Assembly: GCA_951406725.2 (NCBI GenBank)
Contig: CATOCA020000001.1
Location: 1,736,001 to 1,800,000, forward strand
Origin: Octopus vulgaris
Taxonomy: Eukaryota
Direction: 5' to 3'
DNA: 64,000 nucleotides
Positions 4,067 through 47,147 of the stretch are shown here, in pieces. The translations under genes were made by a program, and so were the position numbers. The notes below the pieces were generated by a model, which was not told the DNA's origin, searched no databases, and saw only the letters and a list, made by a program, of their open reading frames with translations. Every line of letters starts with the position of its first letter. Position 1 is the stretch's first letter.

Positions 4067-4292
4067 GAAATATTAAAATTACTAAGTCTCTCTGAAGGAG
4101 ATTACGGCAGCGTTACTGGAAATTAACAGCTATCGCCATACTAATATGGCAGTCTTATAAATATGAGACTAAAGCTGTCGCTGATTAGCTCCAAGAGGCC
4201 ACCGCCTCTAGCTAGCTACTTGGCACACAAACTGCGTCCGTTATAAACCTTCGAACAGGGGAGGTCGGCCGCTTCATCCTGCTAGTCAGACA

Positions 4293-4335
4293 GCTGCAGA
4301 CATGTTTCCGGGTTGTTGCACTTTATCAATGCAGC
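4293..4335 (-). ncRNA. Degenerate hammerhead motif, core UUGAUAA
   Basis: GCTGCA-TTGATAA-...-GAAA-CATG-TC-TGCAGC: perfect stem I, poor stem II. Confidence 0.55.
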
Positions 4336-4402
4336 GTAGTCGACCCGCAGGTGTCGCTACTGACCGTCTCTGTTCGAAGATTCTATTTACATAGTTACAG
4401 TG

Positions 4403-4459
<57 letters not shown>

Positions 4460-4463
<4 letters not shown>

Positions 4464-5190
4464 GTTGTCTGGAAAGTTCGTGCCAATTCTTAAAGGAAAG
4501 AAAAAGGTCAATAAATACTTGCCATTACATTTTTAATCAACAAAATATGAACCACAATGCGTTTCCATCTTCCCTTTAACTTGAAAATACCCTCTTCCCA
4601 GAATTGGGGTGTTTTCATGGCAAAGAATTCATCAAGGTATGTTTTTACATCATCCAAGGAATTAAAATTTTTACCATTAAGACTATTCTGCAGAGACCTG
4701 AATAAGTGCAAATCCGAAGGAGCAATATCTGGTGAATATGGAGGGTTGGGTAACACATCCTAGCCGAGCTGCAGCAATTTTTGTCTGCTTCCCAAGGAAA
4801 CGTGTGGTCTTGCATTATCATGTTGGAAAACAACACCCTTCCTGTTGGCCAATTCTGGACATTTCTCTTGAACTCGTCCAGTTGTGGGCAGTATTTGCCA
4901 GAATTAATAGTCTGGTTACTTGGGAGAATCTCATAGTACAGAATTCCTTTCCAATCCTACCAGACACAAATCAAGACTTTCTTAGGGTAAAGACCCGCTT
5001 TTGGGGTGGCTTAAGGTGGCTCATGTCGCTTAATCCAGGATCCCTTTCTCCGAATATTTCGGCAGATAATCCATTTCTCATCACCTGTCACAATTTGCTT
5101 TAAAAAGATACGTTTTCATTCCGTTTCTAAAGCGAATCACAGATGGAAATGCGATCCAAAAGGTTCTTCACACTCAACTCTGTGATTCCC
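4460..5190 (-). mobile_element. Mariner transposon 3' half
   Basis: PPYSPDIAPSDLHLF motif; TIR GTTGTCTGGAAAGTT at the (TA)n edge; truncated by the Penelope-like element. Confidence 0.85.
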
Positions 5191-9490: not shown

Positions 9491-9561
9491 TGGTAAAAAA
9501 TGTAAGATAAGAAAAGAAAGAAAGAGATCTCAATATTATGTAAATAGAGGAAATTTATCTA

Positions 9562-9773
9562 TAAAATAATATGTTACATTTACTCAATAGTCAAGATAAA
9601 ACTCTGAGTTTCAGATGCCGAAGTGGAAATCCACAACACCATCTGTTCGGTTATTTTTTCATAGCGTTTTTCAGATGGCCAGATAACCGAACAGATGGTG
9701 TTGTGGATTTCCACTTCGGCATCTGAAACTCAGCTTTATCTTGACTATTGAGTAAATGTAACATATTATTTTA
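9562..9773. repeat. ~90-bp fold-back inverted repeat in a (TA)n island
   Basis: Arms about 9562-9655 and 9682-9773; a single-arm relative lies at 38408-38520. Confidence 0.9.
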
Positions 9774-9779
9774 TATATG

Positions 9780-9859
<80 letters not shown>

Positions 9860-10231
9860 AATGTGTGCGTGTGTCTGTGTCTGTGTGTCTGTGTGTTTCT
9901 GTGTACATATAATTTCCTACTACATACTTTATTTTTTATATTTCTTGTGTTACCTTTACTATGATTCAAAGCAATCGCATTATCGTTTAGCGCAATGAAG
10001 TTTCGTGTTAATTATCGAAGTTGCAATGGTTATACTGGACCGGGTCTTACGAAGCTTTTGGCTGTAATAAAGCCAGATCAGGGAATTTAGGAACAGCCAA
10101 AAACGAATTAAATGTTACAGAATTTATTTGGGATTTATTAAATACTTTCTTATACGACAGTCACGATTATGCGTTGAAGACAAAATAAGTTTTCACTTAT
10201 TTGATGCGCAGCACTTCAGGAGCAATTAACA

Positions 10232-10288
<57 letters not shown>

Positions 10289-10447
10289 CACGTTTCTCTA
10301 TCTTGGTAGTCATGGTGCAATACTAATAAATGACCACTTAAAAAAATATATCAATTTATTTGAAAGCTAGAAAAAGCAAAATGCTGTAATTAAAATGTTG
10401 GTAGAGGAGGAGTGTGAGAAAATGAATACAGAATGAAAGGAAGAAGA

Positions 10448-10585
10448 TTAATTTAAGCCACAGCACAGGAATTTATGACATGGCAGCCATGGAAACAGCT
10501 TTATGGTGGTGACATCTAGCGGATAAATGGGTGCGTAGCAATGGGATTTGGGAAATAATCCCAGGCACTCATTTATAACTTTCAT
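10448..10585 (-). other. Candidate 45-aa Cys-rich small ORF or terminal exon, copy 1
   Basis: [45 protein letters not shown], followed by a pyrimidine-rich tract and AATAAA. Confidence 0.3.
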
Positions 10586-10740
10586 GGGTTGTTAAGGAAA
10601 GTATGAACCCACTCTCATATAAGTATGTATGTACGGGTGCATGTGTAGTCATGTATGTACATATATATATACGTATATATGTATATACATACATACTTAT
10701 ATATATATTTATGTATATATGTATATATATATATATATAC

Positions 10741-10822
<82 letters not shown>

Positions 10823-10926
10823 GCAAATATGTGAGTATAGAGCTGTGTATGTATATGTATGTTAGTGTGTATATTCACTTATGTTTATATATATGTATAT
10901 ATATGTGTGTATTTATGCATGTGAGT

Positions 10927-10963
<37 letters not shown>

Positions 10964-11359
10964 GAAAATAGGAATAGACTTGAATATATTATCAAGTCTC
11001 TTCATGTATAAATATAACATTTTTCTTTAATTGCGTTAGTTATTGGACTGCGGCCAGACTGGGGCAGCTCCGTGAAGTTTTCAGTGGAACAACTCGATGT
11101 ATCTACTTGCTAATTCTATTCCTTATCCCCATCGGTTCTGTTTTTACTGAACATCTCAGTATAGGGACGTAACCAGAACCCTACTGATGGTCAAGCGGTG
11201 GTCGTCGAAATCCCATCCCCCGGGGCACAAACCCACACATACATACATCAGGCTACTTTCAGTTGCTGTCAATCGAATTCTCGCATAATCCATTAGCTCC
11301 GATTCGGAGTAGACTGAACTTGGACCCATGTGGTTACAAATACCAGACCCTTCCACTTG

Positions 11360-16595: not shown

Positions 16596-16600
<5 letters not shown>

Positions 16601-16840
16601 TAGGTGCGTGATTATTGCGGCATCTTTCAACAAATTTTATTCAACAAAAACAATAACATGTAACAAAAACATCTTTAAATGATTATTCCGGAGCATATTC
16701 ACCATCTACTTCAATTACTGCTTCCGATTCGCTTGACAGACGGTCAGAACGTCATTAAAAATTTTTTTGTTTAATATTGTTATTGTTTTTGTTGAATAAA
16801 TGTTGCTGAAAAAAGTCGCAATAATTATGCACCTACCCAA
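16596..16840. mobile_element. Mariner-derived MITE
   Basis: ~85-bp imperfect TIRs (TTGGTAGGTGCGTGATTATTGCG / CGCAATAATTATGCACCTACCCAA), non-coding, at a TA site. Confidence 0.8.
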
Positions 16841-17023: not shown

Positions 17024-17587
17024 GTATGTATGTATGTAGGTGTGTGTGTGTACATATAGCCTTCTACTGCGTACGTAAATTTGTACATCTCTTGTATTAC
17101 CTATTCTATGAATCAAAGGAATCGTATTATTGTTTAGTGACGTAAAGTTTGGTGATATTTAGAAAAGTTGTAATTGTTATACTGGACCGGTTTCTAATGA
17201 AGTTTCGTTGTTGGATAAAATGAAACCCCATCACTGAATTTAGAGAGAAGAAAAATGAATTCAGTATTTATTAAGGATTTGTTAAATATTTTATTTTAGA
17301 ATATTCACAATTATGCATAAAAGGCAAAATAATAATTTTCAGTCAGTGATGCACAGCACCTCAGAAGCAATATACATATGGGCATATATGAATATGGGTG
17401 AAAAATATGTGTGTATATCCCTTTTTCTCTATCTCTAAACTACTTGGTCAGGGTGCAGTACAAATAAAAGACCACTGAAACAAAAATATATCAATTTATT
17501 CGAAAGCTAGAAAAAGCAAAATACTGTAATTAAAATGTTGGTAGAGGAGGAGTGTGAGAAAATAAATACAGAATGAAAGGAAGAAGA

Positions 17588-17725
17588 TTAATTTAAGCCA
17601 CAGCACAGGAAGTTATGACATGACAGCCATGGAAACAGCTTTATGGTGGTGACATCGAGCGGATAAATGGGTGCGTAGCAATGGGATTTGGGAAATAATC
17701 CCAGGCACTCATTTATAACTTTCAT
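17588..17725 (-). other. Candidate 45-aa Cys-rich small ORF or terminal exon, copy 2
   Basis: Same frame intact, with P to S, K to N and one silent change. Confidence 0.3.
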
Positions 17726-17793
17726 GGGTTGTTAAGGAAAGTATGAACCCACTCTCTTATATGTATGTACGGGTGCGAGTGTATTTATATATG

Positions 17794-17870
<77 letters not shown>

Positions 17871-18558
17871 GAAATATGTAATGTGTGAATATAGAGGTGT
17901 GCATGTGCACATATCTTTGTGTGTATATACACTTATGTTGAAATATATGTTTCTGCGCGCGTCTCGATGTGTACCAAAACTAAGAACGGACTTGAATATA
18001 TCATCGTATCTGTCTCTCTATACATATGCATACATTGCTTTTAATTGCGTTAATCATTTGACTGTGACCAGACTGGAGCAACACTTTCAAGGTTTGACTG
18101 GAGCAAATCAATGTAACTACTTATTTTTAATCCTGGTTCTTATCCCCACGGTTCTGTTTTTACTAAACAGATCGGTACGGGGACGTAAACAAACTAACGT
18201 CGATGGCCAAGCAGTGGTGGAGAACAATGACACCTCCACATATACAAAAGACAGTCTACTTTCAGATGCTGTCAACCAAATTCCTCTGAAGTCAATAGCT
18301 CGGATCCATAGGCGCAGGAGTGGCTGTGTGGTAAGTAGCTTGTTTACCAACCACATGGTTCCGGGTTCAGTCCTAATGCATGGCACCTTGGGCAAGTGTC
18401 TTTACTATAGCCTCGGGTCGACCGACATCTTGTGAGTGGATTTGGAAGACAGAAACTGAAAGAAGCCCGTCGTATATAGTATATATATATATATATATAT
18501 ATAAATATAATTTATATTTATAAATATATATATATATATATATATATTTATAAATATA

Positions 18559-20780: not shown

Positions 20781-21117
20781 GATTCCAAGCTATGATATTT
20801 GGTAATATATAAATATAAAAGGTATAACTTAAACTGGACCGGTTTTATGAAGCTTCGTTTTGGGATGAGATAAAATCACTTGACAGAATTTAGAGACAAT
20901 TAAAAATGATTTGAATATTACGGGATTTATTTTTGATTTGTTAAATATTTTACTTTACAGCATTCACCATTATTCGTAGAGGACAAAATAATAATTTCCA
21001 ATCATCTGATGCACAACACTCCAGAAGTCGGAGGGCTAGAAAACTCACCAAGAAAGGCTTCAATCTCAAAGAAAAAGCGAAAGGAGGTTGGTGTCTCAAG
21101 CCAATAGAAAAGGCAAC

Positions 21118-21572: not shown

Positions 21573-21869
21573 ATATATATCATATATAATCAAAATAAGG
21601 AACAAGGATATCCAGAGGTAATGCAGTACGATCGTTTCATGCGACTCCATTTAATTGAACAAAGTATGTACTACATCAGTTTTAAAATGTACGGTAAACT
21701 TCAGGTGCATACAAATATAGAATTTAGTCAAATTTAGAAGATTCATTTTTATAGTCATTCCATTAACAGAAATCACAAAGAGGGTAAGTAGGTAGACAGA
21801 GAGACAAGTTTCATCAACAAAAACATGGTAGTAACTAATACTATGTTTTTGTTGATGAAACTTGTTTCG

Positions 21870-24964: not shown

Positions 24965-25310
24965 ACTATCTATCTATCTATCTATTGACGGATGTGATGT
25001 CGTTTCAGCTCCGAAGGTAATCATTTATTTTGACTATTTATAGGCCAATTTTTGTGTAGATTTTTGCAAATAAGGTGTGTAAGGCAACCAACTTTCATTT
25101 GAGTGCTTTTCCAAGGGAGGAATTCGCCCCTAGGGGCAGTTTCGACCCCATTTCATTTCTGTTATTTTCTTCTCGACATTAGAAAATGTCTAGAAATTTT
25201 ATTGTTGAACGCTGGTCGCGTTCTTTTTTGGAACAACATTTTCCTAGTCTGGAAACGACAGAGAAAAAAAGAACGTTCGCACGGAAAATGCCAACGTGAA
25301 ATTCGGTGAA

Positions 25311-27070
25311 ATGAACGCTGCAACCACGTGCGTTAACAGCCCTGTCACCACCGCCACCACCACCACTAACAACAGCAACCACGAGACAACAACTGCTACC
25401 ACCACCACCTCCACCACCACCACCACCACTACCACGACCAACATAAATGATAAAAATAAAACTGAAACGAAAACTATTGACAAAAACAACAGCAACAACA
25501 AGAACAACAATAAAAATGAACTATCTAATAGTGAAGATGCCAATACAAAAAAGTCAACAACAGTAAATTTCGCAGATATTCTTCGCCAGAAAAAGGAGAT
25601 TGTTACATTCACAAATGAAGAGCTCATAGAAACAAGAGCTCTCTTTACAACCCGTGGACAAGATTTAGTCCTGCATACACCTCAACATATAAAACAAGAA
25701 ATTGAAAATAAGACAATTGTATATAAAATTATTAGAAAAAACAAAAAACCAAATGAACAGATTACAAAAACTGATGTGGAGAAATGTTTAAAAAACATAA
25801 TGAAAGAAAAAGAGTATATAAACTGGGGTCCCCAGTTTAACACAGTAGTGGTCCGCTTCCCTAACCAGGAAGTGGCAAAAGCTCACTCTACTGAGTCTCT
25901 GGGAAATGATGAAATCATCATGGTCCCTTATTATAAAAACCAGAGGGTGAGTAGAATTACTATCAGAAATGTATCCCCCGATATGCCGAACAAATGGATA
26001 ACAGGGGCAATCTGTTACCACTTGAAAAAGATCAATATTCTAGAAACAGCCGTGTACCTAAACGACAATTGGGGTGGAAAAACAGTAGTTGTGACCATCC
26101 AGATTGAGGGGGCCTCTATCGAGAGCCTACCCGACAAGATATACTTGGAGAATGGGCAATGCCTATATGTTATGGCAGAAGGCAAAAAGCCTAGATGCTA
26201 CAAATGTGGCAGCCCCGAACATTTGATTGCCAAGTGCGATCTGGTACAGAAAAAACAAGAAAGAACAATTCAGAAAACAAATAAAATCCCTTTGTTGCCA
26301 ACACCAACACCAACACACTCAATTATGGAACAACGCCAAGAAAAACAACAAACCAGCAAACAAACCCCAACAACATCACCAAGAAAAACAGTACCAACAC
26401 AATCACCGTTGACGTCACAACCAATTAAACTTGTTGAATCTTCAAAAAATCGACCCACACCCACACCCAGGACGACAATTAAAAAGACAGAAAACACTGA
26501 CGAGAAGACAAATGCTACCCCTAACACCACAACAACACAAACACCGCACAAAACATCAACAATTTATACAAGCATACATAGTGATCCTGTTCTTTTTCCT
26601 CTACCCCATACTGATACGTCGGACGACGAAAGTTCGACGGAATGGCAAATAGCCACAGGGGTAAAAGAAAAAGATCCAAAAAATCCACCAAACAAGGAAT
26701 TAAAGCAGGGAGATATCTAACTCAGGACAACATTCCCCTAGACAATCAAAAAAGTAATGAACCCGTAAAACCACACACACAACTAACTGCAATAGACACA
26801 GACAATAAAGAATTAATGGACTACATCAAATCTAACATGGTCGTCTGTGAAGATGATTTTAAGACAAACAATCATCCGCACACCACACCACCGAAACACA
26901 TCAGAATTTTACACATAACACAAGCACAACACCACATACTGAAAACATTATTTCCGAATGCGGTAGGCGGGTATCAACGATACCTGTCGAAAAAACTATA
27001 CAAACACCTCATCAAAAACGATACAAAAGAAGAAGAAGAAAAAAATGAAACTTTTAAAATGAGTAAGTGA
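25311..27070 (+). pseudogene. Tx1 ORF1, gag-like, one frameshift near 26660
   Basis: CYKCGSPEHLIAKC zinc knuckle; ORFs 25296-26720 and 26642-27070 overlap and the basic GKRKRSKK stretch resumes in the second frame. Confidence 0.8.
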
Positions 27071-27137
27071 CCTCACTTCTTGCCTCTTGTCTCTTCTAAT
27101 ATAGTGTGTAAAACACAATTTTCGTAAATTGTCAAGT

Positions 27138-30100
27138 ATGCTTAAATTAGGTTGTGTGAATGCGCGTGGCTTGGCGTCGGCTTGGAAGCAAGGTTACCTT
27201 CTAAACGACATCAAGTCACTGGACGTGGATATAGTAGCTATCAGCGAAACCAGACTCAGTAAGCCGCGGGCCCTCGAGTCCATGTTTGGCAATCAATTTG
27301 ACATTTATTTTTCTCCCTGTCTGCCGAACATGGGTGGTGGAGGTACTGCGGTGCTTTTTCGAAAGAGTCTAAAGGTAAAAGTAAGAGCAATATTCCTAGA
27401 CCCGGAGGGTAGGCTGGTTGTCTTGGACGTGGATGGCAGAAATGGGTGTGCATTCCGTCTGATGGCAGTTTATGCACCGTCCTTAACGGGTCGGGCGGAT
27501 TTCTTCAGACGTCTAGAGGTTTTCCTGGGTACGTCTAGACCTTTACTGTTAGTAGGGGATTGGAACGCTACCTTGGACACGCATCTAGATTATGTGGGAA
27601 GGGATAGGAATAGAAGGGGGTGTAAGAGCCTCAAAGACCTGCTCAGACGTTTCCATTTGTCTGACAGGTTCCGACTCGACCATCCGAACGTGCCAACGTG
27701 GACTTGGACAAACCGCGTCGGATCGTCGAGATCTTATCTAGATAGAATTCTATGCAGGACAGCGGATAGGGATAGTGTAGGATGTCCACAATTTAAAATA
27801 GTCAGCTACACAGATCACAAATTTGTTACGTGTACGCTCGACTTAGATAAAACACATAGGCAGGGTCCCGGTTACTGGAAACTGAACACGTCGCTGTTAG
27901 CGCGACAGGTTTACAGGAACCGGATTAGCGAGTTAATTAAGAGGGCGCTGACGGGAGCGGTCGTTAACAACCGCTGGTGGTACGCCCTGAAAATGGCAAT
28001 AAAATCGGAATCAATTAGGTTTAGCAAGGAATTAGCGATAGAACGAAATAGAGTAGAGGGAGACTTAGTTAAGAAACTAGAAGAGGCACTTACCACTGGC
28101 AGCGCAACCAACGTGCTGGCTGCGAGGATGGCCCTCGACCAACACCTCAACGCCAAGCACGAAGGTTGCGTCGTCAGAGCTAAAATGCGTGCCTTAAGGA
28201 ACGAAGGGATTGAAGCTGCGCGAGAGGCCCGGGTAGCGGAGGCGCAGCGTGGCAACAGATCAACCATTCGGTCTCTAATAGATCAACAGGGATGCAGTTT
28301 ACTCGAACCCGAAAGGATGTGTGAGGCCTTTCAACAGCACTTTGCTCGACTGTTTGGTGCGAGTGGTGGGTCGGAACGAGGGATGGATTTCAGTGCCTAC
28401 CTGACCGACCTGCCGCGGCTCTCGGCAAGAGAGGCGGAGTGTTGTGAAAGTCCCATCACAGCCGCTGACGTGTGGGATGCGATGGCGGGCTGCGCGAGGG
28501 ATAAGTCGCCTGGATTGGATGGTTTACCCTACGAGCTGTATTGTCGAATGCCAGACTTGTTTGGCGACCTCTTGGCATCAGTCTACTGCAACTGGCAACA
28601 AAACGGGAGAATCCCCGGTTTCGTGAGCCGAGGTGCAGTGACGTTGCTGAAGAAAGACTCAAACAAGGGGAATTTTATAGATAATTTCAGGCCCATCACT
28701 CTGCTCAACGCAGATTTGAAAATTTTGGCCAAAGTAATAGCCGAGAGGTTGGCGCTTGTCATTGGTAAACTGGTCGACAGGGCGCAAACATGCGCCGTGC
28801 CGGGCAGAACCATACATGACAACCTCCATCTGATGCGCTACATTGTGGACAGGGTAGTTAAGGATCCTGGCATGGGTGGGGCGCTGATCAATTTGGATCA
28901 GTCTAAAGCCTTCGATAGGGTCGACCATCGGTACTTGGCGGCCGTCCTCAGGGCGGCTGGCTTCGGTCCCGTCTTCCGCGGTTGGATCGCTGCCTTGTAT
29001 AGCGGCATCCGATCGGTGATTCGGGTGAACGGTCACCTGTCGAAACCGTTTGACATCACGCGTTCGGTCCGTCAGGGGTGTCCCCTGTCGGCGCTTCTGT
29101 ATGTATTGACTCTCGAGCCGCTACTGCGGAAGCTGGCGACACTGAGGGGCATCCCACGGGAACTGGGTTGCGGGACGAGCGTGTCGGCATATGCGGACGA
29201 TGTCACCGTCATAGTGTCGAGCTACCAGCACATCGAGCTGGTCGGCGAGACACTAAAAAATACGAAACGGTGACGGGAGCAAAGATTAACCCGGAAAAGT
29301 CAGTGGGTTTGCTACTCGGCACCTGGAGAAGCAAGCCCATGCCGTCCGACTGCGGCTCAGTAGTGGGACGCTGGACGGACGGACCGGTTAAATTGCTCGG
29401 GGTCTGGTTCAGTCCGGACCTCCAAATGGATAAGAACTGGGACGAGATCACGAGTAGAGTGGTCGCTCTCAGCCAAACATGGGCCGAGAGAAAGCTGTCT
29501 CTAAAAGGCCGGGCGGAGGTGGCGAACGCGTACATCGCATCCGTCATCGATTACCGCCTGACCGTCGTACCTTGTCCCGACGCCACCATCACCAAACTGG
29601 AACGCATACTCTTCCGCTTCCTGTGGAAGGGTGGCGTTCCGATGGTGAGGAAGTCCATTTGCTGTCAACATCCGTTGAATGGAGGACTGGGCATGCCGTG
29701 GTTGATGATGCGCAGGCATGCGCTGAGACTGCGACATCTCTGGAAATTCATCGACGACGGTGAACAGGTGTGGGCGCCGTTTGTGAGGCGCGACTTCCCG
29801 CAGCTCGTCTCACTGACCGAACTGCAAACGTGGATCAAAAAGAGACCGAAACTGGGCGATTGGCACCGAGAGTGTCGCCAAGCTCTACAGCAGCTCTGCC
29901 GACCGGGGTCAAACTTGTGCAACTTCAAACGACTAAAGCGTTCTATAGAGGACTAGTGGAGGGGAGGTCCGACGACACACTCGGGGCAAACCTGGGCGTC
30001 GACGAGAAATTCCTAACCCGCCTGTTCAGGACGACGTTCGGGCCGGGGCCTATGGATAACTTCCAGAAATCCCTGGCTTGGCAGTGCTATCGAGACGCAC

Positions 30101-30576
30101 TACCTGTTCGAGAGAAGAGCTACAGACACGGTTCGAAAACCATCACCGGACCGACCTGCCCGAGATGCGGTCAGAGCGACGAAACCGTTCTGCACGCACT
30201 CGTTCAGTGTCCAGATATTTCAGAGCTGTTGTCCTTCGTCGAACAGCTGTTGTCACGTGTAGGTCAGGCTCGCCTATCGGCCGAGTCTATTGTGGATATT
30301 GTTCCACCACCTTCCTTTAAACGGGAAGGGAAAACGGTTTTCGTTACGCTGATGGCTATGGCGAAAGAATGTGTGTGGTGGACGCGTTTGAAAGGACTGC
30401 AAACAAACACCTTCCTCTCTGGTCAGTCTCTCGTCAACTTTTTCAAGTACCACTTGAAAAGGAGGATGAGAATAGAGAGGAAGGCTTTGTCGAACGAATG
30501 TTTTAATAAAAAGTGGGTAAAAGTGGCAAAAATGGTCAGTATGAAAGACGACACTATTTTAAGCATAAATCTGTAA
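27138..30576 (+). pseudogene. Tx1 ORF2 (AP endonuclease, RT, C-terminal zinc finger), frameshifts near 29260 and 29925
   Basis: NARGL, SET, GDWN, SYLDRI, TDH (APE); KSPGLDG, FRPITLLN, KAFDRV, QGCPLS, YADD (RT); CPRC...HALVQC. Confidence 0.93.
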
Positions 30577-31401: not shown

Positions 31402-32259
31402 TATTGAAATGGATAAATGAATTATCTTGTTACAGATTATTCAAATGATAACCGATACCTGGGTAGCAAAAATCACAACAGAAAATCACGGTTGAGGTTA
31501 CGACCATGGGGTCTCAAAACCGTGCCTCAGTGCGGAAATTTGAAGTTTTATATATTTAGTGTAGGAAGAAATGGAGCTGAACGAAGATTTAACAAAATTC
31601 CTTTTTATTATTTTCTACATATGTTTCAAAGGCTGCAAAGTCCCTAATTCGGATTGAATAAGGAGACCATTTTGCAGCCTTCTCTTCAGGAAAATCCAGG
31701 AACTTAATTCTCGAAATGATCGTAGAGCAAGGTGAAATGAAATGCGTTGCTCAAGAACACAACGCCCAAGAACAATCGATCTGAGAATCGATACCACGAT
31801 CTCACAATCGTGAGTGCAACACCCTAATCACTAAGCCATGCGCCTTCATTGGATTATATATATACATACTTTGTTCCTCTTGTATATCTCTTAGACATTG
31901 GTTAAAGCGTATAAGCTGTGTGTGTATCTATCGATCCTAATGTAAAAATTAACATGATTACGTTGAACAAAATGAATTTTCACTGAGGAAAATTATTTGC
32001 AGCATTAAATAATTTTCTTGTTTGAATTAAAGAAAGTACTGGAATTGTGTGAATTATTCTGCCCAGTAGAGTCTGCATCTTCTACTTCTATACAAAATAA
32101 GAAGGAAACATTTTTGCTCTCGGTTAATTGGTATAATTAAAAAGAAAATGAACAAAGACAAACAGTTCCGTAAGGACAAGAAAAGGAAAAGCGCAAAATA
32201 AAATGCTGATTTATTGAAATTATCCAAGCTTTGAGAAAATGTAAATAAATAGTTGTATG

Positions 32260-32292
<33 letters not shown>

Positions 32293-33548: not shown

Positions 33549-33703
33549 CTCAAACAGAATTAAAATATTTGCTATTTACTGTACAGTATTTAGCGAAATG
33601 ACTGAAAGTCAACTGCGGCGCAATATCTCCCAAGTTTTGAACAAATCCCAGGCATTGCATAACATAGGAGTTCAGAAGAGTCACATGAAATTCATTGATG
33701 AAC
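33549..33703 (+). CDS. Adhesion GPCR, candidate extracellular exon (SNRIKIFAIYC...MKFIDE)
   Basis: tttcAG acceptor and strong GTAAGT donor, open frame, phase-1 end matches the next exon. Upstream exons not identified. Confidence 0.6.
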
Positions 33704-35495
33704 GTAAGTAACGTGTTTCTTATTAATTTTATCACCATTACCATCATAATTAGCTTCATCAATCACCATTACCATCCTCTTCGTCGTTGTCATCATCTTC
33801 AACCACAGTGGATGATACCATAGGACACGCACGCACGCGCGCGCATGAACACATACATGCACACAGACTCTCTCCCTTTCTCTCTCTCTCTCTCTCTCTC
33901 ATACATACAACTATTTATTTACATTTTCTCAAAGCTTGGATAATTTCAATAAATCAGCATTTTATTTTGCGCTTTTCCTTTTCTTGTCCTTACGGAATGT
34001 TTGTCTTTGCTCATTTTCTTTTTAATTATACCAATTAACCGAGAGCAAAAATGTTTCCTTCTTATTTTGTATAGAAGTAGAAGATGCAGACTCTACTGGG
34101 CAGAATAATTCACACAATTCCAGTACTTGCTTTAATTAAAACAAGAAAATTATTTAATGCTGCAAATAATTTTCCTCAGTGAAAATTCATTTTGTTCAAC
34201 GTGATCATGTTAATTTTTACATTAGGATCGATAGATACACACACAGCTTATACGCTTTAACCAATGTCTAAGAGATATACAAGAGGAACAAAGTATGTAT
34301 ATATATATAATCCAATGAAAGCGCATGGCTTAGTGATTAGGGTGTTGCACTCACGATTGTGAGATCGTGGTATCGATTCTCAGATCGATTGTTCTTGGGC
34401 GTTGTGTTCTTGAGCAACGCATTTCATTTCACCTTGCTCTACGATCATTTCGACATCTGACGTGTGGCTCCCGTTGTTCGGTAAGAAATTGTCGAACCGT
34501 CATACGTCGTCTAACGACCTGAGAGTCCATGCGAATCCAATGAAAACAAGAAGAGAAAGAAAAGCCTGTAAGAGTCTTTAATTATAAGTTACAAATGTTT
34601 CCGTAATATTTCCATTTGCATCGCCAGTTCTAAACTTCTAAAAGAAAAATTACGTAATATTTGCGGTTTTAGGCATTGGAGAGGAACTTCCTCAGACTTG
34701 CATGAAAGGCGTGCTATTACATTGTGCGTTTAGGTCTGACAGACGCATTTTTACTTGTTACAGCCACTTCACTGTGGCCACGCTGGAGCACCACCTTGAA
34801 GAGTGTTAGTCGAAGAAATCGATCCCAGGAGTTATTCTTTGAAAGCCTAGTGCTAATTTTATCTGTCGCGGTCCTTGGAATTTTCCGAAGGATTCCTGGT
34901 ATTGTAGTGAAAAGGGAGATAATAGAGGGGTAGGCAGTATGTTGACGTTTGAATTGCGAGTTGCGATTCGAGTCTGTATCAGTATCATGGGTCATATATA
35001 AATATAAAAGTCTTTACAAATTGTTATTTCTGGTGATATTGACCAAGACTTTTGATTCTCAGTTACATTCTCATAAATGACCAGCTCAAATTTTTTCCCA
35101 AATTAAGCATTTCTTATCCAGAAAATCAAACTCATTTCAACCTTCTTTAATCAGCATCTACCTCTTTCAACGACTTCTTGTATGTCGCTGTTATACATGT
35201 CCATACTTTGCACATATCTCAGTCGGAAAGTATTTCTTTCCTATTATATCATGGAAAGTTCATGGTGAACCACTTTCGAGCGAAATCATTAATAGATCGG
35301 TGTTAAAGTCATGCCTGGCTTGCCTCAAGGGGGATAATATTTCGAAAATGTCCGATATTTTTAATATTTTTGATAGCGTAAGAGAATATCGCTCTCCATA
35401 TGTGTTTCTAACACTTCATGGTACATGGTTCTCAAATCAGCCAGCACGTCCAAACTATTTATTTACAACAGCAACTGCTGCTGCTACTGCTATTT

Positions 35496-35583
<88 letters not shown>

Positions 35584-35796
35584 AACTACTACATCAGCAA
35601 TACCAACATCACAACACCACCACTATCACAACCACCACCACCACCACCACAACCATCACCACCACCACCACCACCACCACCACCACCACAACCAACACCA
35701 ATACCACTACCAACACCGCCATCACTTTTGCATCTAATATTTCAGCTCAGAGCAACTGTAATTCCCTTAAATTTCATGTTAAATTTTCCATTGCAG

Positions 35797-36025
35797 GAAA
35801 CATCGACAGTATTTTGGAGGAGGTTTTAGATGTATCCCAGAAATCAGTGTATTTCAAAGAAGATGTTGAATTGACTGTAGACCTTCACGAGAAAATGGTG
35901 CCACTTGTATCGACTGTGTCGGCCAATATAACTTTGAACCACACACTTCGTAGTATCAACAATTTGTTAAACATACCAGAGGAGGTTCTGGCCGAGACAG
36001 AACAAGAGAATAGAAGTGCCAACAG
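35797..36025 (+). CDS. Adhesion GPCR exon, helical GAIN subdomain A (NIDSILEEVLDVSQKS...EQENRSANR)
   Basis: ttgcAG / GTAATA, phase 1 to phase 2, amphipathic helices typical of the GAIN N-terminal part. Confidence 0.8.
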
Positions 36026-36104
36026 GTAATATTCAAATCACTTTTGGTAGTAGTAGTAGTAGTAGTAGTAGTAGTAATAATGGTGGTGGTGGTGGTAGTG
36101 GTAG

Positions 36105-36138
<34 letters not shown>

Positions 36139-36179
36139 TAATAATAATAATAATGATGATGATGATGATGATAATAATG

Positions 36180-36225
<46 letters not shown>

Positions 36226-36245
36226 TGATGATGATGATAATAATG

Positions 36246-36304
<59 letters not shown>

Positions 36305-36324
36305 TATAATAATGATAATAATAA

Positions 36325-36680
36325 TACCAGCAGATGACAACGTGTCTCTACAAGAAATGGAGAAACTTTCAAAATACAAGGACCTGGAAATAGAGGTAAC
36401 TCGAACGTGGAATAATTCACACAGAAACAATTCCTATCATAGTGAGCGCATTAAGTATGATGTAAAAAACATTCAGACAAATACATAAGAAAAACACCAG
36501 GACTAACAAATATACATAACTTACAGAAAATAGTACTACTAGGCACTGCACATATACTACGTAAAACACATTCAATAAAGTAACCATAAGAGCGTCACAG
36601 CAAACCACAGCACATACCCAAGGCACACATAGCTGCGCTCGATAGTGAAGTGAAAGCACGTTATAAAAATAAGACTACTG
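36325..36680 (+). mobile_element. 5'-truncated R4/Dong-type RLE LINE 3' fragment in (ATA)n
   Basis: IPADDNVSLQEMEKLSKYKDLEIEVTRTW resembles the RLE C-terminus of the 51-55 kb element; TAA repeats on both sides. Confidence 0.8.
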
Positions 36681-36958
36681 AATAATAATAATAATAATAA
36701 TAATGATGATGATGATGATGATGATGATAAGAAGAAGAAGAAGAAAAGTAAAAAGAAATAGATCCCGCGGTCATATATGGAGCGGCATAAATAATAAAAG
36801 TTGTTGCATCAATGCTAACAACAACAACAGAAGTATTAGAAGCAAGAGTAGCATGCAAAAATTTGTTAAGCGGAATAATTAGTGTAATTACACCTAAAGC
36901 TAATTACGTATTCGAAACACATTGTTAATGGAAAGTCGTTTTCTTGATTTCCTCACAG

Positions 36959-37130
36959 ATTGCTGCATCTTATACAAGAAATCCCAAAAAAGATTCCACT
37001 GGAGGAGCAGCAAGTCACAGCTATCTATTCTAATCTTGGTATTGGTGTTGCCAAAGTGAATCCGGACGCATTCGATGGTCTTTTCTATGGGGTTTCCTAC
37101 GGAACCAATGAAACAGAAGCCAAAACATGG
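36959..37130 (+). CDS. Adhesion GPCR exon, GAIN (LLHLIQEIPKKIPLEEQQVTAIYSNLGIGV...AKTW)
   Basis: cacAG / GTACCA, phase 2 to phase 0, in frame with the previous exon. Confidence 0.8.
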
Positions 37131-37249
37131 GTACCAAAAGTTCTCATGATTACTCTCTTGTTCTAAACACCCAAGTTGATAAAATACATTAGAATGGAAT
37201 ATAATTACGTTTATTGTTATGTAAAGTAAGACAAGATGTCTATGCATGT

Positions 37250-37291
37250 ATCTATCTACCTGTCTGTCTGTATACAATCTATCTATCTATA

Positions 37292-37329
<38 letters not shown>

Positions 37330-37802
37330 GCTATCTATCTATCGATCGATTTATCTATCTACCTACCTACCTACCTACCTACCTACCTACCTACCTACCT
37401 ACCTACCTACCTACCTACCTACTTACCTACCTACCTACCTACCTACCTACCTACCTACCTACATACCTACCTACCTACCTACCTACCTACCTACCTACCT
37501 ACCTACCTACCTACCTACCTACCTACCTACCTACCTACCTACCTACCTACCTACCTACCTACCTACCTACCTACCTACCTACCTACCTACCTACCTACCT
37601 ACCTACATACCTACCTACCTACCTACCTACCTACCTACATACCTACCTACCTACCTACCTACCTACCTACCTACCTACCTACCTACCTACCTACCTACCT
37701 ACCTACATACCTACCTACCTACCTACCTACCTACTACCTACCTACCTACCTACCTACCTACCTACCTACCTACCTACCTACCTACCTACCTACCTACCTA
37801 CC
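37250..37802. repeat. (ATCT)n then (ACCT)n microsatellite
   Basis: Directly visible. Confidence 0.97.
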
Positions 37803-38216
37803 TTTCTCCTTGGTTCCTTCCTTCGAATTCGGTGCGTGTGTATATTTGATGAAATAGTTTGACTTTAGCGTCTCGTTACAGCGTGTGGCTTTACTTATTG
37901 TAATCACACTTATTGTGATAATGCATTTAAAAAAATTATATACCTCGTATTAATTTTTTCCGTAATTGATTTTACAAGGTGGCTACTTAATAAAATATAA
38001 ATTTTATCCTTACATTCTATATATATATATATGTATATATATACATATATATATATATATATTAGAAAAACACTTTTTAGCAATTCAAAATGAACAATTA
38101 AATTACACCATCTAGAAAATTACATATAATAGAAATTTTAAAATTAAAATAACAATAATATACCGAAGATTAAGTAAATTGCAAAAAAATAATAGAAACG
38201 TATATATTTGGTAGAA

Positions 38217-38324
38217 TAACGACACGTGTTTCGTGACCATATTTAAGAAATGATTATAGTAAAAAAATTTAATAATAGTAGTAGTAAAATCACTTCGATA
38301 TGAATATTGCCACCCATCAGGTTA
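38217..38324 (-). ncRNA. Type I hammerhead motif with long stem II, core CUGAUGG
   Basis: TAAC-CTGATGG-GTGGC...GTCAC-GAAA-CACGTG-TC-GTTA. Confidence 0.7.
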
Positions 38325-38364
38325 GAATAAACTAGAATAATAAAATAATCACTTAATAAATATA

Positions 38365-38411
<47 letters not shown>

Positions 38412-38516
38412 ATGTTACATTACTCGGTAGTCAAGATAAAACTCTGAGTTTCAGATGCCGAAGTGGAAATCCACAACACCATCTCTTCGGTTATCTGGCT
38501 ATTTGAAAACGTTATG

Positions 38517-38565
<49 letters not shown>

Positions 38566-39304
38566 ATACTATATATACATTAAGTGAAAACTAAAAACAA
38601 TTTTTTAAATTATTCAATACTTTAAAATTAATTAATATATACAATGCTAGTACAGGTCATTAATATCATAATGAAAATAAGAAATGGTTCAAATATAGAC
38701 AAACTCATTAAATAAGCTAACTATATAATTAATATATATGTGTAGTATCTATAGATTTAATAAATCACTCAATAATATAATTGACTAAATATCAATTAAT
38801 ATAATACCTAATTATCTTAAATTTCATACTACATAATAAATTTACCAACTAATACTTAATATATTGTGTAACAAAATTAATTCTCAAATTAAATTAAATG
38901 TAATACGTTAGATCCTTTTATAAAAAAATCTAAATAAATAGGTTTAATAATTAATATCTATCGTAACTCATAACTATCAAAAATTATTTACTAATGGAAA
39001 GTAAGAAACATTTAAGCCCCATAAATTAAAGAAAGGTGCAAAAATATTAGAACAAATGAACAATACACTATGAAGATATTCAACCACAACCAACAGTCCA
39101 CTACAAATCCAGTCAATGACAATAATAATAATAACAACAACAATCAAACTCAAAATAATACAGGATCCAAATAATATTGATAAACAATGTATATTACGAT
39201 GTTCAACGATTAAATTGATCTAGCTGGATTTTAAATGTATAAAAATATGTTTTAGCGTCTTATTAATATACCCAATGCTATAACTAGTCTTGAATAATAT
39301 ATAA

Positions 39305-39775
39305 TATTCTCCCTAGAGCGAAGGCAGGAGAGATATGCGGTGATATACATGTGGAAAATCCTGGAGGGTCTTGTCCCAAACTTTGGCATTCAAAGTTACC
39401 CCAACCGCAGAACGGGGCGCCAATGCATGGTGCCAAAGATTCCAACATCACAATCAAAGTACAGGTCCAGATACTGCAACAGCTTGGGTTTCAGAGGACC
39501 ACAGCTCTTTAACATCCTCCCTAAATGCCTGAGAGACTTACATGGTGTGGATGTGGGTTTCTTTAAAACTAAACTGGATCTCTTCTTGTCGGGGGTCCCA
39601 GATGAACCTACCTCACGACAGGAGACACAGATGCGGGCAGCGGCATCGAACTCCCTTGTTGACCAAGTGACACGTATCAGAGGTGGATTCACATATTAGT
39701 GTAGCTCATTCAGCGGTGGTGCCCCAGCATGGCCGCGGCCTTCGGGCTAAAACATTTTTAAGGATTTAAGGATTT
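39305..39775 (+). mobile_element. 3' fragment of a related CR1/L2-group LINE subfamily
   Basis: WKILEGLVPNFGI...VPDEPTSRQE homologous to 13680-14043; ends in (TTTAAGGA) repeats. Confidence 0.85.
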
Positions 39776-39779
39776 ATAT

Positions 39780-40050
39780 ACTAGCAGTATCACCCGGCGT
39801 TGCGGTTTGTTTAGACCCTTTAGAATTGGAATTTTTGAAAAGTAAAAATTTGGCAGTATGTAGCTTGTTATTCTCTTTAAGTGAAATACACCGAAAAATG
39901 GCGACACAACAGTGAAAAGATCGTAAAAAATAGGGATTTTCATAGAAAAAAGGCACCTTTTTGATGTAAATAATTTTTGGTGTTAACATGGTCCGATTTG
40001 AATATTTTCTTCCACGGAAGGAAGAGTTAGCCTTCTTCTATCATACTCTC

Positions 40051-40147
<97 letters not shown>

Positions 40148-40540
40148 TACGAAAAACCCTCTAGGCTACATCCCGAAAATTCCTTTCTTTGACGAATTTC
40201 TACAATGTTTACGGCGATTCCTTTTTATATCTTGATTTTTTATTTTTCATGCAATTTACGCATGCTTTCACGCGTGGTGAACACAGTTCACGTCAAACAG
40301 CTGACTGAGTAAAGATCACTATTCAATGCATGGGATAAGCTCTAAACAAACACATTATCGAATTTTGCACTTGCGAGATGAATTTCGGAACAGAAATAGC
40401 GCAGTTCAATTTTCATTCGCCTAAACTTTAAGTGTCCCATTTTTGGTGGTTCTACAATTTGTTGGCTAGGAGGAGATGTGCCGGGAAGTTAAACACACAG
40501 ACACACACACAGACACACAAGTTGAGTTTTATATATATAG
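39780..40540 (-). mobile_element. Non-autonomous Helitron
   Basis: Minus strand starts TCTATATATATAAAA plus GT microsatellite and ends GCAACGCCGGGTGATACTGCTAG. Confidence 0.75.
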
Positions 40541-40553
40541 ATATATATATATA

Positions 40554-40590
<37 letters not shown>

Positions 40591-41372
40591 ACCACATAAA
40601 AAAGATGAACAATATAACATAATAATTAGAGTATACATTTATACTGCATTATTTTTCTGATCATTTGCTTCATCAGAAAAATATAAAAAGTTTGTGCATA
40701 TTTCAGCTAAATACATCATCATGTGTAATTGTGTGTAGCAAATGGAGTACACGGGTGTATTTGGTTTTTTGTATGTATGCTTGTTACAAAACGTTTCAGG
40801 AATATTGTTATATTTCGGAATGGTCATTTTGCCAGTTTAGCCAATAAGATTAAGATTAATGTAAAAAATAAATAACACTGAAGCAAAATAACACCAAATA
40901 TATAGTGCGTGTGTTTTTGTTGGCTAAACTGGCAAAGTGACCATTCCGAAATATAACAATATCTGTTTCAACACACGACTTCACATAAAAAATCTTGCAC
41001 AACAAATATATAAACGTTTCAGGAATAAATAGTAGGAAATTATGTCATTGGTTGAAAATAATGGGAATTTGTACAAAATACTTCTGTCTTCATTTCACTG
41101 CGATCCCAAGACTAGAAAGCGATCGAGGCAGAATGTAGAAAATTATTGAATAGACCAATAATTAGTTGACCGACGTAGAAACCCCAATGGTTGCTTGTGT
41201 ATGAGATAATGGCAGTGTATGATACTGGTAGTTTGAGATATTATGTTACTTGCAATGTTGTAGTCGTGTAGTGGTTGTGGAAGAAGAGGTTACAATAATA
41301 GTAGCAGTAGCAACTGTAGTAGTGTTATTTATTCTTTATTGATTTCAATTTATCTTTCTTTTTCTCCACCAG

Positions 41373-41530
41373 ATAAACCCTCACCAAATCCCGACCAACA
41401 AGAAGCAGATGCGAAGATCATGGCATCTATTTCATTACCAAGGAGTTTATTAAAACATCTGAAAGACGAAGAAAGGTCATCCGTTTCGCGGATAACTTTT
41501 TTCTCCATGCGGGACGATAAGCTATATAGG
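41373..41530 (+). CDS. Adhesion GPCR exon, GAIN (SPNPDQQEADAKIMASISLPRSLL...DDKLYR), 1 nt short of frame
   Basis: Polypyrimidine tract plus accAG, GTATGG donor, ASISLP motif typical of GAIN. 158 nt between two phase-0 neighbours. Confidence 0.75.
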
Positions 41531-41725
41531 GTATGGAACAAAAACGGACATTTTTCATCTTCTTGTTGACAGGAGAATGTTTGGATGCATTGAGGCTCTT
41601 TTTGATAATAATAGAAACAATACTAATGTAACATAACTGCCAATGTTTATGTGAATATACTCATCTATATATGAGAGCATGTGTGTGTGAACAATTTATT
41701 ATGCATATAGAAACTCAGGAGAGAA

Positions 41726-42125
41726 GGCGGCGAGCTGGCAGAAACGTTAGCACGCCAGGCGAAATGCTTAGCATTATTTCGTCTGTCGTTACGTTCTGAG
41801 TTCAAATTCCGCCGAGGTCTGTCTTTGCCTTTCATCCTCTTGGGGTCGATATATTCTGTAACAGTTACGCACTTGGAGTCGATGTAATCGACTTAATCCA
41901 TTTGTGTGTCCTTGTTTGTCCCCTTTGTGTTAAGCCCTTTTCGCCTGCCGTTACGTTCTGAGTTCAAATTCCGCTGAGGTCGACTTTGCCTTTCCTCCTT
42001 TCGGAGTCGATTAAATAAGTATCAGTTATGCACTGGGGTCGATGTAAGCGACTTAATCCATTTGTCTGTTCTTGTTTGTCCCCTGTTCTATGTTTGGCTT
42101 CTTGTGGGCTATAAAGAAATAAGAA
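41726..42125 (+). mobile_element. SINE family B (Meta-domain-like centre), internally duplicated
   Basis: Head GGCGGCGAGCTGGCAGAA, B-box GAGTTCAAATTCC, family core GCCTTTCATCCTTTCGGGGTCGAT (variant here). Confidence 0.8.
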
Positions 42126-42519
42126 ACTCGGGAGGGAACTTGTTTTGAGTTTTGTTTCGGATAGACTTCTCTTAAGAAAATTAGTTTATCAAAAGCAGAA
42201 ATAACATCAACGAATCTTGAGACACTGAGGTTCCAACTTGATTCTACCGCTACAGACATTCGGACTTTATTCAGAATCTTTGTTCAAATATAAAAAACCG
42301 AAAGACATTTGCTGATTTCTGTAGAAGTTGGCCGGGGACAAATGGAATCCCTCTTTGCTCTCCAAACAACGTTAGATTCAAGGAACGATGGGAAGAACAT
42401 TTATAACTGAAATAAAAATTTAAAACAATGGCAGCGATAAACTTTTGTCTCGGAGGTCTCTGATAAGATACACGAAATCACTTAGGAGAAACTTCTGTGA
42501 CAAAACACACGCACGTCAC

Positions 42520-43600
<1,081 letters not shown>

Positions 43601-44215
43601 CGCACACACACACACATACACACACACATACACACACACACATACACACACACACATACACATACACATGTATAACGTCGTCATCCTTTTAAGGACCATT
43701 TCCTCTGCTTGCATCGGGAAGACAGAATTCATTGAACCAGATTTTCTCCGGCCAAATGTCGTTCCGGACACCAAACTTCACCTGTCTCAAACAAGTCAAT
43801 CCTTTCCCGTGGCAGAACAGGGTTTCAAGAAAAAAAAGAACCCCGCTTGTATGACGGTGATGCATCCTTTTCTTGTTTTTGTCATTGGACTGCGGCCATG
43901 CTGGAGTACCACATTGAATGGTTTACTTAAACGAATTGACCGCGGCACTTATATTTTTCTAGCGTGGTACTTATTCTAATTCTTTTGCTGAACTCTTTAA
44001 GGGAATGTAAACAAACTAACACAGGCTGTCATGCGCTGGTGAGAGCAAAGACAAACACACATACATTCACAAACATAAAAATACATACACACATGCGTAT
44101 ATGCATGCGTGCGCGCGCGTGTGTGTATATGACAGTTTTCGTTCAGTTTTCATTCATCAAATCGATTTTCAATGACTCCCGTGCCACCACCATCACTTCC
44201 ACCTTCTTGATCCAC

Positions 44216-44248
<33 letters not shown>

Positions 44249-45099
44249 ATCTCCCCAACACTCCATTCTGATGACATTAACCATCAACCACACCACCTTC
44301 GTTCATCACTTAAACACTCAACCTCTTGCCTCATCTTTACCACCTGTCTTTACACTCTCTTGACCCACAGGTTTCTTTCCCCGTGTTCCACCGCCTGGAT
44401 ACCCTCATATACTTATCTTCTTGTACCTTGATGATGCATCTAGACACCTCGTTACCAACGTCTACATCCTACTTTCACTTACTGCTACCTACACACATAC
44501 AGAGCGTGGTAGTCCTGCATCTCCTCTCTTCTCAGACTCCTGTGCTTGTCTCTCCATCATAATTTAACCTTCAGAAACTGGCATTATGCCACCCACATTT
44601 TCTCAAATATGCTTCCTCGCTGCCAAGGGGGATTTTCTTTTCTATTCTTTGTTTTACAAGTTACTTGGTAACCTTACTTGGGCTGGTAATGCGGAAATAA
44701 CACTTAGTCCACGTTGTAAAGTGGTTGGCATTAGGAAGGTCATTCAGCTGTGGAAACCAATGTCAAAGCCGACATTATAGGCCGATGCGCTCCTGGGGCT
44801 TGTGGAATCCTTTCCGAGCATCCAACCCATGCCATCATGGAAAACATGCTAAATAACAATCATCATGAAGATGATAACTCTTACATATATGCATTTTCGT
44901 ACACATGTACACAGACATATGTATTCTTATGGTATATATACGTATTGTTGAGAAGCTCAGAGAACCAACTGTGTGGTCTTGGGTCCAGTAAGTGTGCACG
45001 GCATATTGGGGAAGTTCCTTTTAGTATAACCCCAAGCATACCACATCCTTGTAAGTGGATATGGTAGGCGGAAGCTGAAGAAAGCCCTTAGTATCAAAA

Positions 45100-45600
45100 T
45101 GCCAACATCACGATTGCTGCTCATTGCTCTGTGAACACTGTAAAGGCTGTGGCATGGACAGCAGCAATGGATACTACAAGGAAGTGACCAGCAGGAAGGG
45201 ATACACTATGCAATCTATCTGCGTCCAAACGCCGAAAATTCATCTCCGCATCTTTGAACAGGACCTTAGGCAGGATTCAGGCGGCTACTGACTGGCGAGG
45301 TTTGCTGCTCAAAGGCGTCATGTGTGACAACAGCAAATGGCCACTTGCCATATCTCCGGAAAGAGTCAGAAGTGGTTGTTTGTGAAAAACATCAACCTGT
45401 CTGCCTGTAACAGCAAGCTGCTGGCTAGGATCAAGGAGGTTTTCAAAAACATTTCCATTAACCCTGTGAGAAGCGCATGAGCTAGGTTCCAGAGTTGTCT
45501 CGAGGTCATGGTAGAAGTTGATGGGAGCTAGTTTGAGTAGACAGTTTCCTCCCAGCAATAAACTGGTGGATATTTTTTTGAGTTTTTAAGAATAGTTTTG
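45100..45600 (-). mobile_element. Degenerate Tc1/mariner C-terminal remnant
   Basis: Weak resemblance to the SAPSH and WPPxSPD regions. Confidence 0.4.
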
Positions 45601-46249
45601 TTTTTGGACAAGACATCGTGTTGTCTTTCTTTTTATGCAAATTATCAGATTCAGCCCGAACATGTATAGACTTTATTTAGTTTGCCAGATTTTTAATGTG
45701 AATTCGTGTGTTGAATCAAATTTTGTTGTGCCTATGAAGAGTCATGACACACACACACGCACACACATACACGCACGTACACACATACACACACACACAC
45801 ATGCACGAAAGCAAAGACTGAAAACTTGAGTGTATTTTTATTTCCATGTTACAACACCCTGACCGCTTGGCTATGCGTCCACACTACACGCTTACAGACA
45901 GACACAAAGACACACACATTCACACACACGCAAACACACGCACACACACATACAAACTCATAAACACAAACACATACACACACGGGCGCTCGCGTGCACA
46001 CACTTATATATATATATACACCTTTTTAATCACAAGCGGATTACAGACCAATTTATCGACCGTCAGTGTTAGAAATCTATTTAATCAAGGTGCTGAGCAG
46101 TGAGGCTGAACGCAGGATTCGTTGATTACCAAGAGATTTCTTAAATACCGGCAGCCCTTATGTAAAAAAAATTCAATGCAAAAAACTTTTATGTTCCTTA
46201 GAACAAGTACAACTGTCAATGGAGATGGGATATTTTTTGTAGTATATAT

Positions 46250-46880
46250 TTTTTCTACTCTAGGCAGAAGGCCCGATATTTTGGGGGAGGGACAGTCGAT
46301 TAAATCGACCTCAGTACGCAACTGGTACTTAATTTATCAACCCCGAAAGGATGAAAGGCAAAGTCGACCTCGGCGGCATTTGAACTCAGAACGGAGCGGC
46401 AGACGAAATACCTATTTCTTTACTACCCACAAGGGGCAAAACACAGAGAGGACAAACGAGGACAGACAAACGGATTAAGTCGATTATATCGACCCCAGTG
46501 CGTAACTGGTACTTAATTTATCGACCCCGAAAGGATGAAAGGCAAAGTCGACTTGGCGGAATTTGATCTCAGAACGTAACGGCAGACGAAATACTACTAA
46601 GCAATCCGCCCGGCCTGCTAACGGTTCCGCCAGCTCACCGCTCTTTTGTAGTATATATTATATTATTGTCAGACTTCCATCTGGCAGAATCGTTAGCATG
46701 CTGGGTAAAATGCTCACAACCATTCATCTGTCTTCACTTTCAGAGTTCAAATTTCGCCGATGTCGAATCTGCCTTTCATTCTTTTGGAGTCAATAAAATG
46801 AGTACCAGTTGAGTACGGGCGTTGATGTAATGGACTTTGCTTACACACAAAATTGCTGGCCTTGTGCCAACTTTTGAAAC
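46250..46880. mobile_element. SINE family B, head-to-head copies (46250-46642 minus, 46680-46880 plus)
   Basis: Same head and core as 41726-42125. Confidence 0.8.
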
Positions 46881-47018
46881 CAGTATATATTTTATGAAGT
46901 TGTGCTGTTGGCTAAAGTAACGATGTCTAATTACAACAATCCTAACGTTTGATCGTTTCATGCTTTAATAATGTTTTCCATTGAATAGATTAATTTACTT
47001 AATAACTTCTCTTCACAG

Positions 47019-47147
47019 GTAACACAAAACTCCAGTGCCAAAGGAAATACTGAAATTAACAGCCAGGTACTTGCTACAAGTATCCCGAACATTTCAATAA
47101 GCAACCTTGATGAACCAATTAATATATCCTTCAATTTAATAAACCAG
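47019..47147 (+). CDS. Adhesion GPCR exon, GAIN (VTQNSS...INSQVLATSIPNISISNLDEPINISFNLINQ)
   Basis: cacAG / GTAATA, 129 nt, phase 0-0, NSxV...NLxEPxxIxF GAIN motif. Confidence 0.9.

Follow-up and report, generated by a model that had tools for sequence, protein, structure and literature searches.

A 272-bp island in octopus segmental duplications, probably kept uniform by gene conversion

The window, that is, the whole stretch of 64,000 nucleotides analysed here, comes from Octopus vulgaris (contig CATOCA020000001.1, positions 1,736,001 to 1,800,000 of the forward strand). It contains two duplicated units, A and B. Each unit carries a nearly identical block between diverged flanks, and the features around both copies are the following.

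9905-10225, plus strand: truncated copy of repeat X in unit A, not homogenised, 72-73% identical to the copy in unit B (repeat matches)
10236-10287, no strand assigned: (GT)n microsatellite on the 5' side of copy A, missing from B; one duplication breakpoint falls within it
10346-10617, no strand assigned: homogenised block with A-type flanks (alignments and copy comparison)
10448-10585, minus strand: ORF of 45 codons including the stop, rejected as a gene (variant count and protein searches)
10481-10595, plus strand: predicted three-way RNA fold with a 14-bp closing stem, a short hairpin and a long bulged hairpin (prediction, no covariation support)
10523-10576, plus strand: bulged quasi-palindromic hairpin, predicted to be stable as DNA too (-11.7 kcal/mol)
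10620-10820, no strand assigned: TA-rich microsatellite at the 3' boundary of the block, with a counterpart behind copy B
10764-11303, no strand assigned: 3' homologous flank, not homogenised, 69% identical to 17782-18305 (gaps counted)
17055-17375, plus strand: truncated copy of repeat X in unit B, with the same break point as in unit A (repeat matches)
17486-17757, no strand assigned: homogenised block with B-type flanks (alignments and copy comparison)
17621-17735, plus strand: the same predicted three-way fold in copy B (prediction)
20798-21100, plus strand: independent copy of repeat X (repeat matches)

The two blocks differ at 7 of 272 bases, one of them the last base. Their pairwise alignment has no gaps and a constant offset of 7140 bp. 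The initial annotation had described this offset and the absence of indels correctly, with a count of about 6 substitutions over some 270 bp. It had also called the flanks more diverged and indel-rich, and the global alignment of units A and B agrees. Outside the microsatellites, the flanks present 74-78% ungapped identity with frequent gaps, against 97% in the gapless block. The divergence of the flanks amounts to about 0.29 substitutions per site. The edges of the block are sharp in this alignment; in some copies of the genome, the shared sequence fades out only at about 10331 and 10642. The identity of the block, relative to its flanks, is far beyond chance. Small inverted-repeat (MITE-like) elements lie within TA microsatellites of the window (9553-9822 and 38356-38519; 16600-16840), and the MITE-like insert of unit A differs from that of unit B.

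An old dispersed repeat, named repeat X here, makes up the 5' flank; we take it to resemble the 5' end of a Helitron. It has 31 matches (6 B-type, 9 A-type, 5 of the third type and 11 on other contigs), and the copies on other contigs show 68-80% identity. Units A and B leave repeat X at one common point. Segment 20798-21100 passes this point and continues in step with the copies on other contigs. Because the break point is common to A and B and is passed by 20798-21100, we regard A and B as true old duplicates. Segment 20798-21100 had been described as a partial third duplicate that lacks the block; judging from the break points, it is an independent insertion of repeat X and not a third duplicate of the unit, so its missing block is uninformative. 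Within repeat X, copies A and B (72-73%) are hardly closer to each other than either is to the independent copies. This suggests that conversion ended early in this part of the units.

The block is not limited to the pair in the window. The genome of the same animal has 17 full copies with 96.7-100% identity and one remnant of 53 bp (18 of 18 candidates checked). A 22-mer from the block gave 17 exact matches at the same places, with no additional one at up to 2 mismatches. The hundreds of dispersed copies considered beforehand as the mark of a young transposable element are therefore not present. Fifteen copies are clustered on contig C31 and two are on contig C29. By their flanks, 10 copies are A-type and 5 are B-type, and the two C29 copies have an A 5' flank joined to a B 3' flank. 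Every copy is inside segmental duplications, which extend over several kb to tens of kb and are mostly 90-99% alike, and the copies lie mainly in clusters 7-16 kb apart. One duplicon (L018) has lost the block: it ends at base 53 and is followed, by eye, by sequence matching the window from 21470 onward. The part common to all duplicons examined is about 10249-10820, a partly circular result since the duplicons were located through the block.

Outside the block, the duplicons consist of transposon debris and microsatellites, and the block itself is a single-family, non-repetitive sequence. A DNA search with E up to 10 recovered 17 of the 17 known copies and no diverged paralog, and nhmmer gave none either. 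Likewise, a covariance model of the block gave two known copies and one chance-level match in 32 sources, and a gapped block motif had 0 matches in metagenome and viral contigs. A literature search found no description of this element, which is not proof of its absence from print. The Pfam scan (150 of about 270 candidate frames) gave one convincing non-transposon match, the GPS motif at 47499-47825. This adhesion-GPCR link is not common to the clusters: four exon probes match the window's own region only, among 8 cluster regions.

The variation among copies supports recurrent local gene conversion between the duplicates; local gene conversion was one of the two readings proposed in the initial annotation. 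Between 10 A-flank and 5 B-flank copies, the block has no fixed difference, and 5 variable sites are common to both groups, this shared polymorphism being counted among copies of one assembly and not in a population sample. Of 153 pairs formed by non-singleton sites, 52 show all four gametes. In the 5' 177 bp, diversity is 3.7% within A, 2.8% within B and 3.6% between A and B. The tract edges are mosaic, with B alleles 5' of the block in L006 and L012 and A alleles 3' of it in L002 and L009; L005 becomes B-like after 10642. The block thus shows two properties of a conversion tract, namely paralog identity of 97% against 74-78% in the flanks and shared polymorphism without fixed differences. 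The marks of recurrent conversion under the neutral model of Fawcett and Innan (2011; PMC3924837) match those of the block.

We examined the substitutions of individual copies to evaluate the other reading, purifying selection on an unannotated small gene or ncRNA. Among the 15 C31 copies, private substitutions are found at 18 of 4065 site-copies in the block and at 49 of 11147 in four flank segments, that is, 0.0044 in both. The C29 copies differ from the nearest C31 copy at 10 of 272 block sites (3.7%). Their divergence is 2.6-4.7% in the 3' flank and mostly 3-7% per 100 bp in the 5' region, so these isolated copies drift clock-like, as the flanks do. The 5' 177 bp of the block even has a diversity of 3.9%, against 1.1-2.8% in five flank segments. 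Private substitutions are not depleted in the block, and purifying selection is not supported by the tests run. Because new mutations accrue as fast as in the neighbouring sequence, the block is probably ordinary non-coding DNA. As for a small gene or ncRNA, the block lacks a coding signature, a match in Rfam and an snRNA promoter.

Two observations, both spotted post hoc, are weak hints of constraint. The ratio of indels to substitution alleles is 0:35 in the block and 69:515 in the complex sequence of the duplicons (Fisher p 0.024; a looser mask gives 125:727), a comparison biased by the fact that the block is partly defined by the absence of indels. In addition, its 3' 95 bp are more uniform, with 1.2% against 4.1% elsewhere in the block (p 0.007 for a fixed window, 0.03-0.04 for any window), and the block includes an invariant run of 48 bp (p 0.037). 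Redundancy among 17 copies could also make selection per copy too weak to deplete private variants.

These hints, together with the predicted fold, would fit a lineage-specific structured ncRNA on the plus strand, either at about 10481-10595 or as an exon of 270 nt. It would be weakly selected and would anchor conversion, with tracts spreading to the nearest microsatellite. We consider this reading unlikely. The fold z of the plus strand is -4.3 in copy A and -5.1 in copy B (-2.1 and -2.4 on the minus strand). The closing stem and the long hairpin belong to the minimum-energy fold in 15 of 17 copies, and 10523-10570 is invariant in 17 of 17. Indels are absent and the 3' third is uniform. The block is also single-family and non-repetitive amid transposon debris, and the only part common to all duplicons examined, these having been located through it. 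Nevertheless, the fold window was picked after inspection, and a crude matched control weakens the z values: 14 of 39 random 272-bp segments have z <= -3.8 (as good as copy A) and 7 of 39 reach -5.3 (as good as copy B). Two-sided changes occur at 0 of 64 predicted pairs, a count of low power given the little variation. Nor is the fold spared by variation: its ten variant alleles disrupt it as much as random changes of matching type do (p 0.56). At gathering score, Rfam 15 gives no family anywhere in the window; with E up to 10, the block has only two weak matches at chance level. ARAGORN finds no tRNA. The plus strand of the block lacks a run of four T. The block scores at most 9 for the snRNA promoter, against 12-28 for the 17 training upstream sequences, using a two-box model (about -90 and -59, 32-bp spacing) derived from the U1, U2, U4 and U5 genes of this genome. 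The fuller proposal is an octopus-specific RNA gene of 115 nt with a three-way junction and no known family. It would have kept ancient duplicates in concerted evolution and would be the core of the duplications of a 12-Mb contig, expanding to 17 copies. This proposal, too, is unlikely.

No RNA run containing the block is among the 24 public runs listed, and four that we guessed to be RNA speak neither for nor against transcription. In X2-X4, coverage extends to 168-232 bp of the block with depth 2-7 and the longest records are 16-17 kb, which fits low-depth DNA as well as RNA. Run X1 has short contigs with depth up to 274 over 10295-10401 and several copy-specific alleles. The four runs show no joints and were read without a silent-stretch control. 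Runs labelled with two other species contain 0.41-0.66 of the sampled block words, a fraction uncalibrated by flanks. As to known RNA classes, a look by eye for typical features of SECIS, hammerhead, telomerase, 7SK, vault, H/ACA, C/D and U7 was negative, and Rfam has none of them here. Solo LTR and CTCF site were considered in the same way and dropped.

The absence of indels is also what a cis-regulatory DNA element (promoter, first exon, enhancer or insulator) would produce, if both sequence and spacing were constrained. By eye, the block is bracketed by a TATA-like hexamer, situated about 27 bp ahead of a putative start near 10353, and by a donor-like hexamer near 10622. These motifs are short and lie within AT-rich or microsatellite sequence, and the mutation counts are neutral-like. 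Moreover, the clusters share no gene: among 8 cluster regions, adhesion-GPCR exons are beside the pair of the window only, and near-identical paralogs of these exons are located elsewhere. Such an element is improbable. A further candidate is a single-exon gene on the minus strand, encoding a cysteine-containing peptide of 45 residues. The ORF and an invariant polyadenylation-type hexamer near the block end (10355-10360) are both within the block. By hand count, though, the 15 alleles in the ORF comprise 2 synonymous, 11 missense and 2 nonsense changes, with 2 stop-loss changes in addition. The peptide has no relative among 1.84 billion representative proteins and no Pfam family, and the plus strand has stops in all three frames. 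With no synonymous bias, a broken frame and no homologs, the peptide gene is largely refuted and very improbable. The high identity of the copies would likewise fit a young mobile element inserted separately at each place. There are just 17 copies, all in homologous flanks within duplicons, and A and B share both flanks and the repeat X breakpoint. Since all 17 copies and the remnant are inside segmental duplications on two contigs, the block is not a young dispersed transposon, and this explanation deserves hardly any credit. Segment 10454-10513 resembles an RTE-like LINE reverse-transcriptase motif with a score of 82.6; genomic controls score 79.4 at the 90th percentile and 92.6 at the 99th. 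We reject the likeness as unproven, and it is absent with nine other reverse-transcriptase regions.

We consider it the most likely account, held with some reserve, that the block is a conversion island of 272 bp, present in 17 near-identical copies whose flanks are about 25% apart, and that it is maintained by conversion and probably has no function of its own. An old tandem duplication would have produced units A and B, now about 0.29 substitutions per site apart. Conversion would have ended wherever microsatellites, insertions and substitutions disrupted pairing. One stretch may have kept converting throughout, or a repair event may have reset it a single time. Segmental duplications of recent date, with copies mostly 90-99% alike, would then have multiplied the island, mainly in clusters 7-16 kb apart. 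With many donors supplied by these duplications, the island would therefore become self-sustaining. As a trigger, we can only guess at breaks, either in the TA-rich repeat beside the block or in the hairpin within it. The island may also have served as a recombination substrate, joining the A 5' flank to the B 3' flank in the two C29 copies. As this chimera split at roughly 3-5% divergence, the island would be older than the split, with an age up to that of the duplication.

A neutral island also faces objections. Two neighbours of the same length as the block, repeat X and the 3' flank, have fully diverged. Because equally long neighbours diverged, one preserved stretch needs a special cause or luck. 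In yeast, as reported in PMC3924837, long-lived conversion is confined to selected coding sequence, which also counts against a neutral island. Persistence would thus be the main remaining argument for function.

As read here, the block is a new case of a known process, gene conversion between duplicates, and a small and clean example of it. As in the interlocus conversion and concerted evolution described in PMC3924837, old paralogs show low divergence, shared polymorphism and chimeric haplotypes; the lineage accumulates substitutions at a neutral rate, and conversion terminates where insertions or indels disrupt pairing. The block differs in being a single non-coding island of 272 bp that persists between flanks about 25% apart; long-lived conversion in that review concerns a region of several megabases in rice or coding sequence in yeast. 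Primate core duplicons (LCR16a/NPIP) offer another parallel: there too, many duplicons, interspersed and tandem, have in common a short core that takes part in rearrangement. The primate cores differ in harbouring transcribed genes, and the octopus duplicons were located via the block. A canonical microRNA precursor shares a stable hairpin, of about 54 nt in the block. This hairpin has only about 19 pairs and a 7-by-1 internal loop, and its stem is not extended at the base. Motif searches in supplementary files of PMC9699675 and PMC11701709, in which no sequence list was seen, gave no match. The case also calls for caution: a sharply bounded block of 97% identity between old duplicates can mimic a conserved gene through conversion alone, and copy-level mutation counts distinguish the two. 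If the RNA reading were true, the block would represent a new multicopy ncRNA family in cephalopods, tied to a rearrangement-prone region. RNA regulation in cephalopods is of wide interest.

The snRNA arrays of this genome (U1, U2, U4, U5, U6) are, like the block, multicopy and clustered, with a near-identical short core and more variable flanks. Unlike them, the block has neither an Rfam match nor the two-box promoter. In the 130 bp upstream of U2, U1, U5 and U4 (L079-L090, L101-L134), this Pol II promoter presents an AATTAA box near -90 and a second box, ATCAGTG, at -55 to -61. Sixteen of the 17 upstream sequences used have 32 bp between the boxes. The A-rich 3' box of these genes ends in AGAC or AGAT. 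The literature search found no paper title on the snRNA promoter of this genome. For U6, an octamer-like box (near -75) is combined with a TATA box (near -30) at 4 of 10 loci (L092, L094, L099 and L100). The remaining loci have neither box and look like retrocopies.

Other features were observed in the window and near the copies. An adhesion-GPCR gene occupies about 33550-48610 on the plus strand, with GAIN/GPS and transmembrane exons, and continues at L021 (about 64500-65200). The 66 matches to its GPS exon include four identical copies and two with 96-98% identity on C30 and C31. An inverted pair of 583 bp, 98% identical, lies on either side of the first recognisable exon of this gene (31711-32291 and 33872-34453). 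A near full-length LINE (25248-30573, plus strand) carries an ORF1 with a zinc knuckle and an endonuclease-RT ORF2 that is interrupted by frameshifts, and is at one duplicon edge. By eye, unique duplicon sequence includes a possible micro-exon of about 30 bp (21752-21790, plus strand) with a pyrimidine-rich acceptor and a strong donor. An exon that we labelled by eye as ankyrin-repeat-like lies in L025 (about 4148-4624, minus strand), some 7 kb upstream of the pair at 4.15 Mb on C31. Finally, 58050-58540 is a tandem array of 18-bp units, open in several frames.
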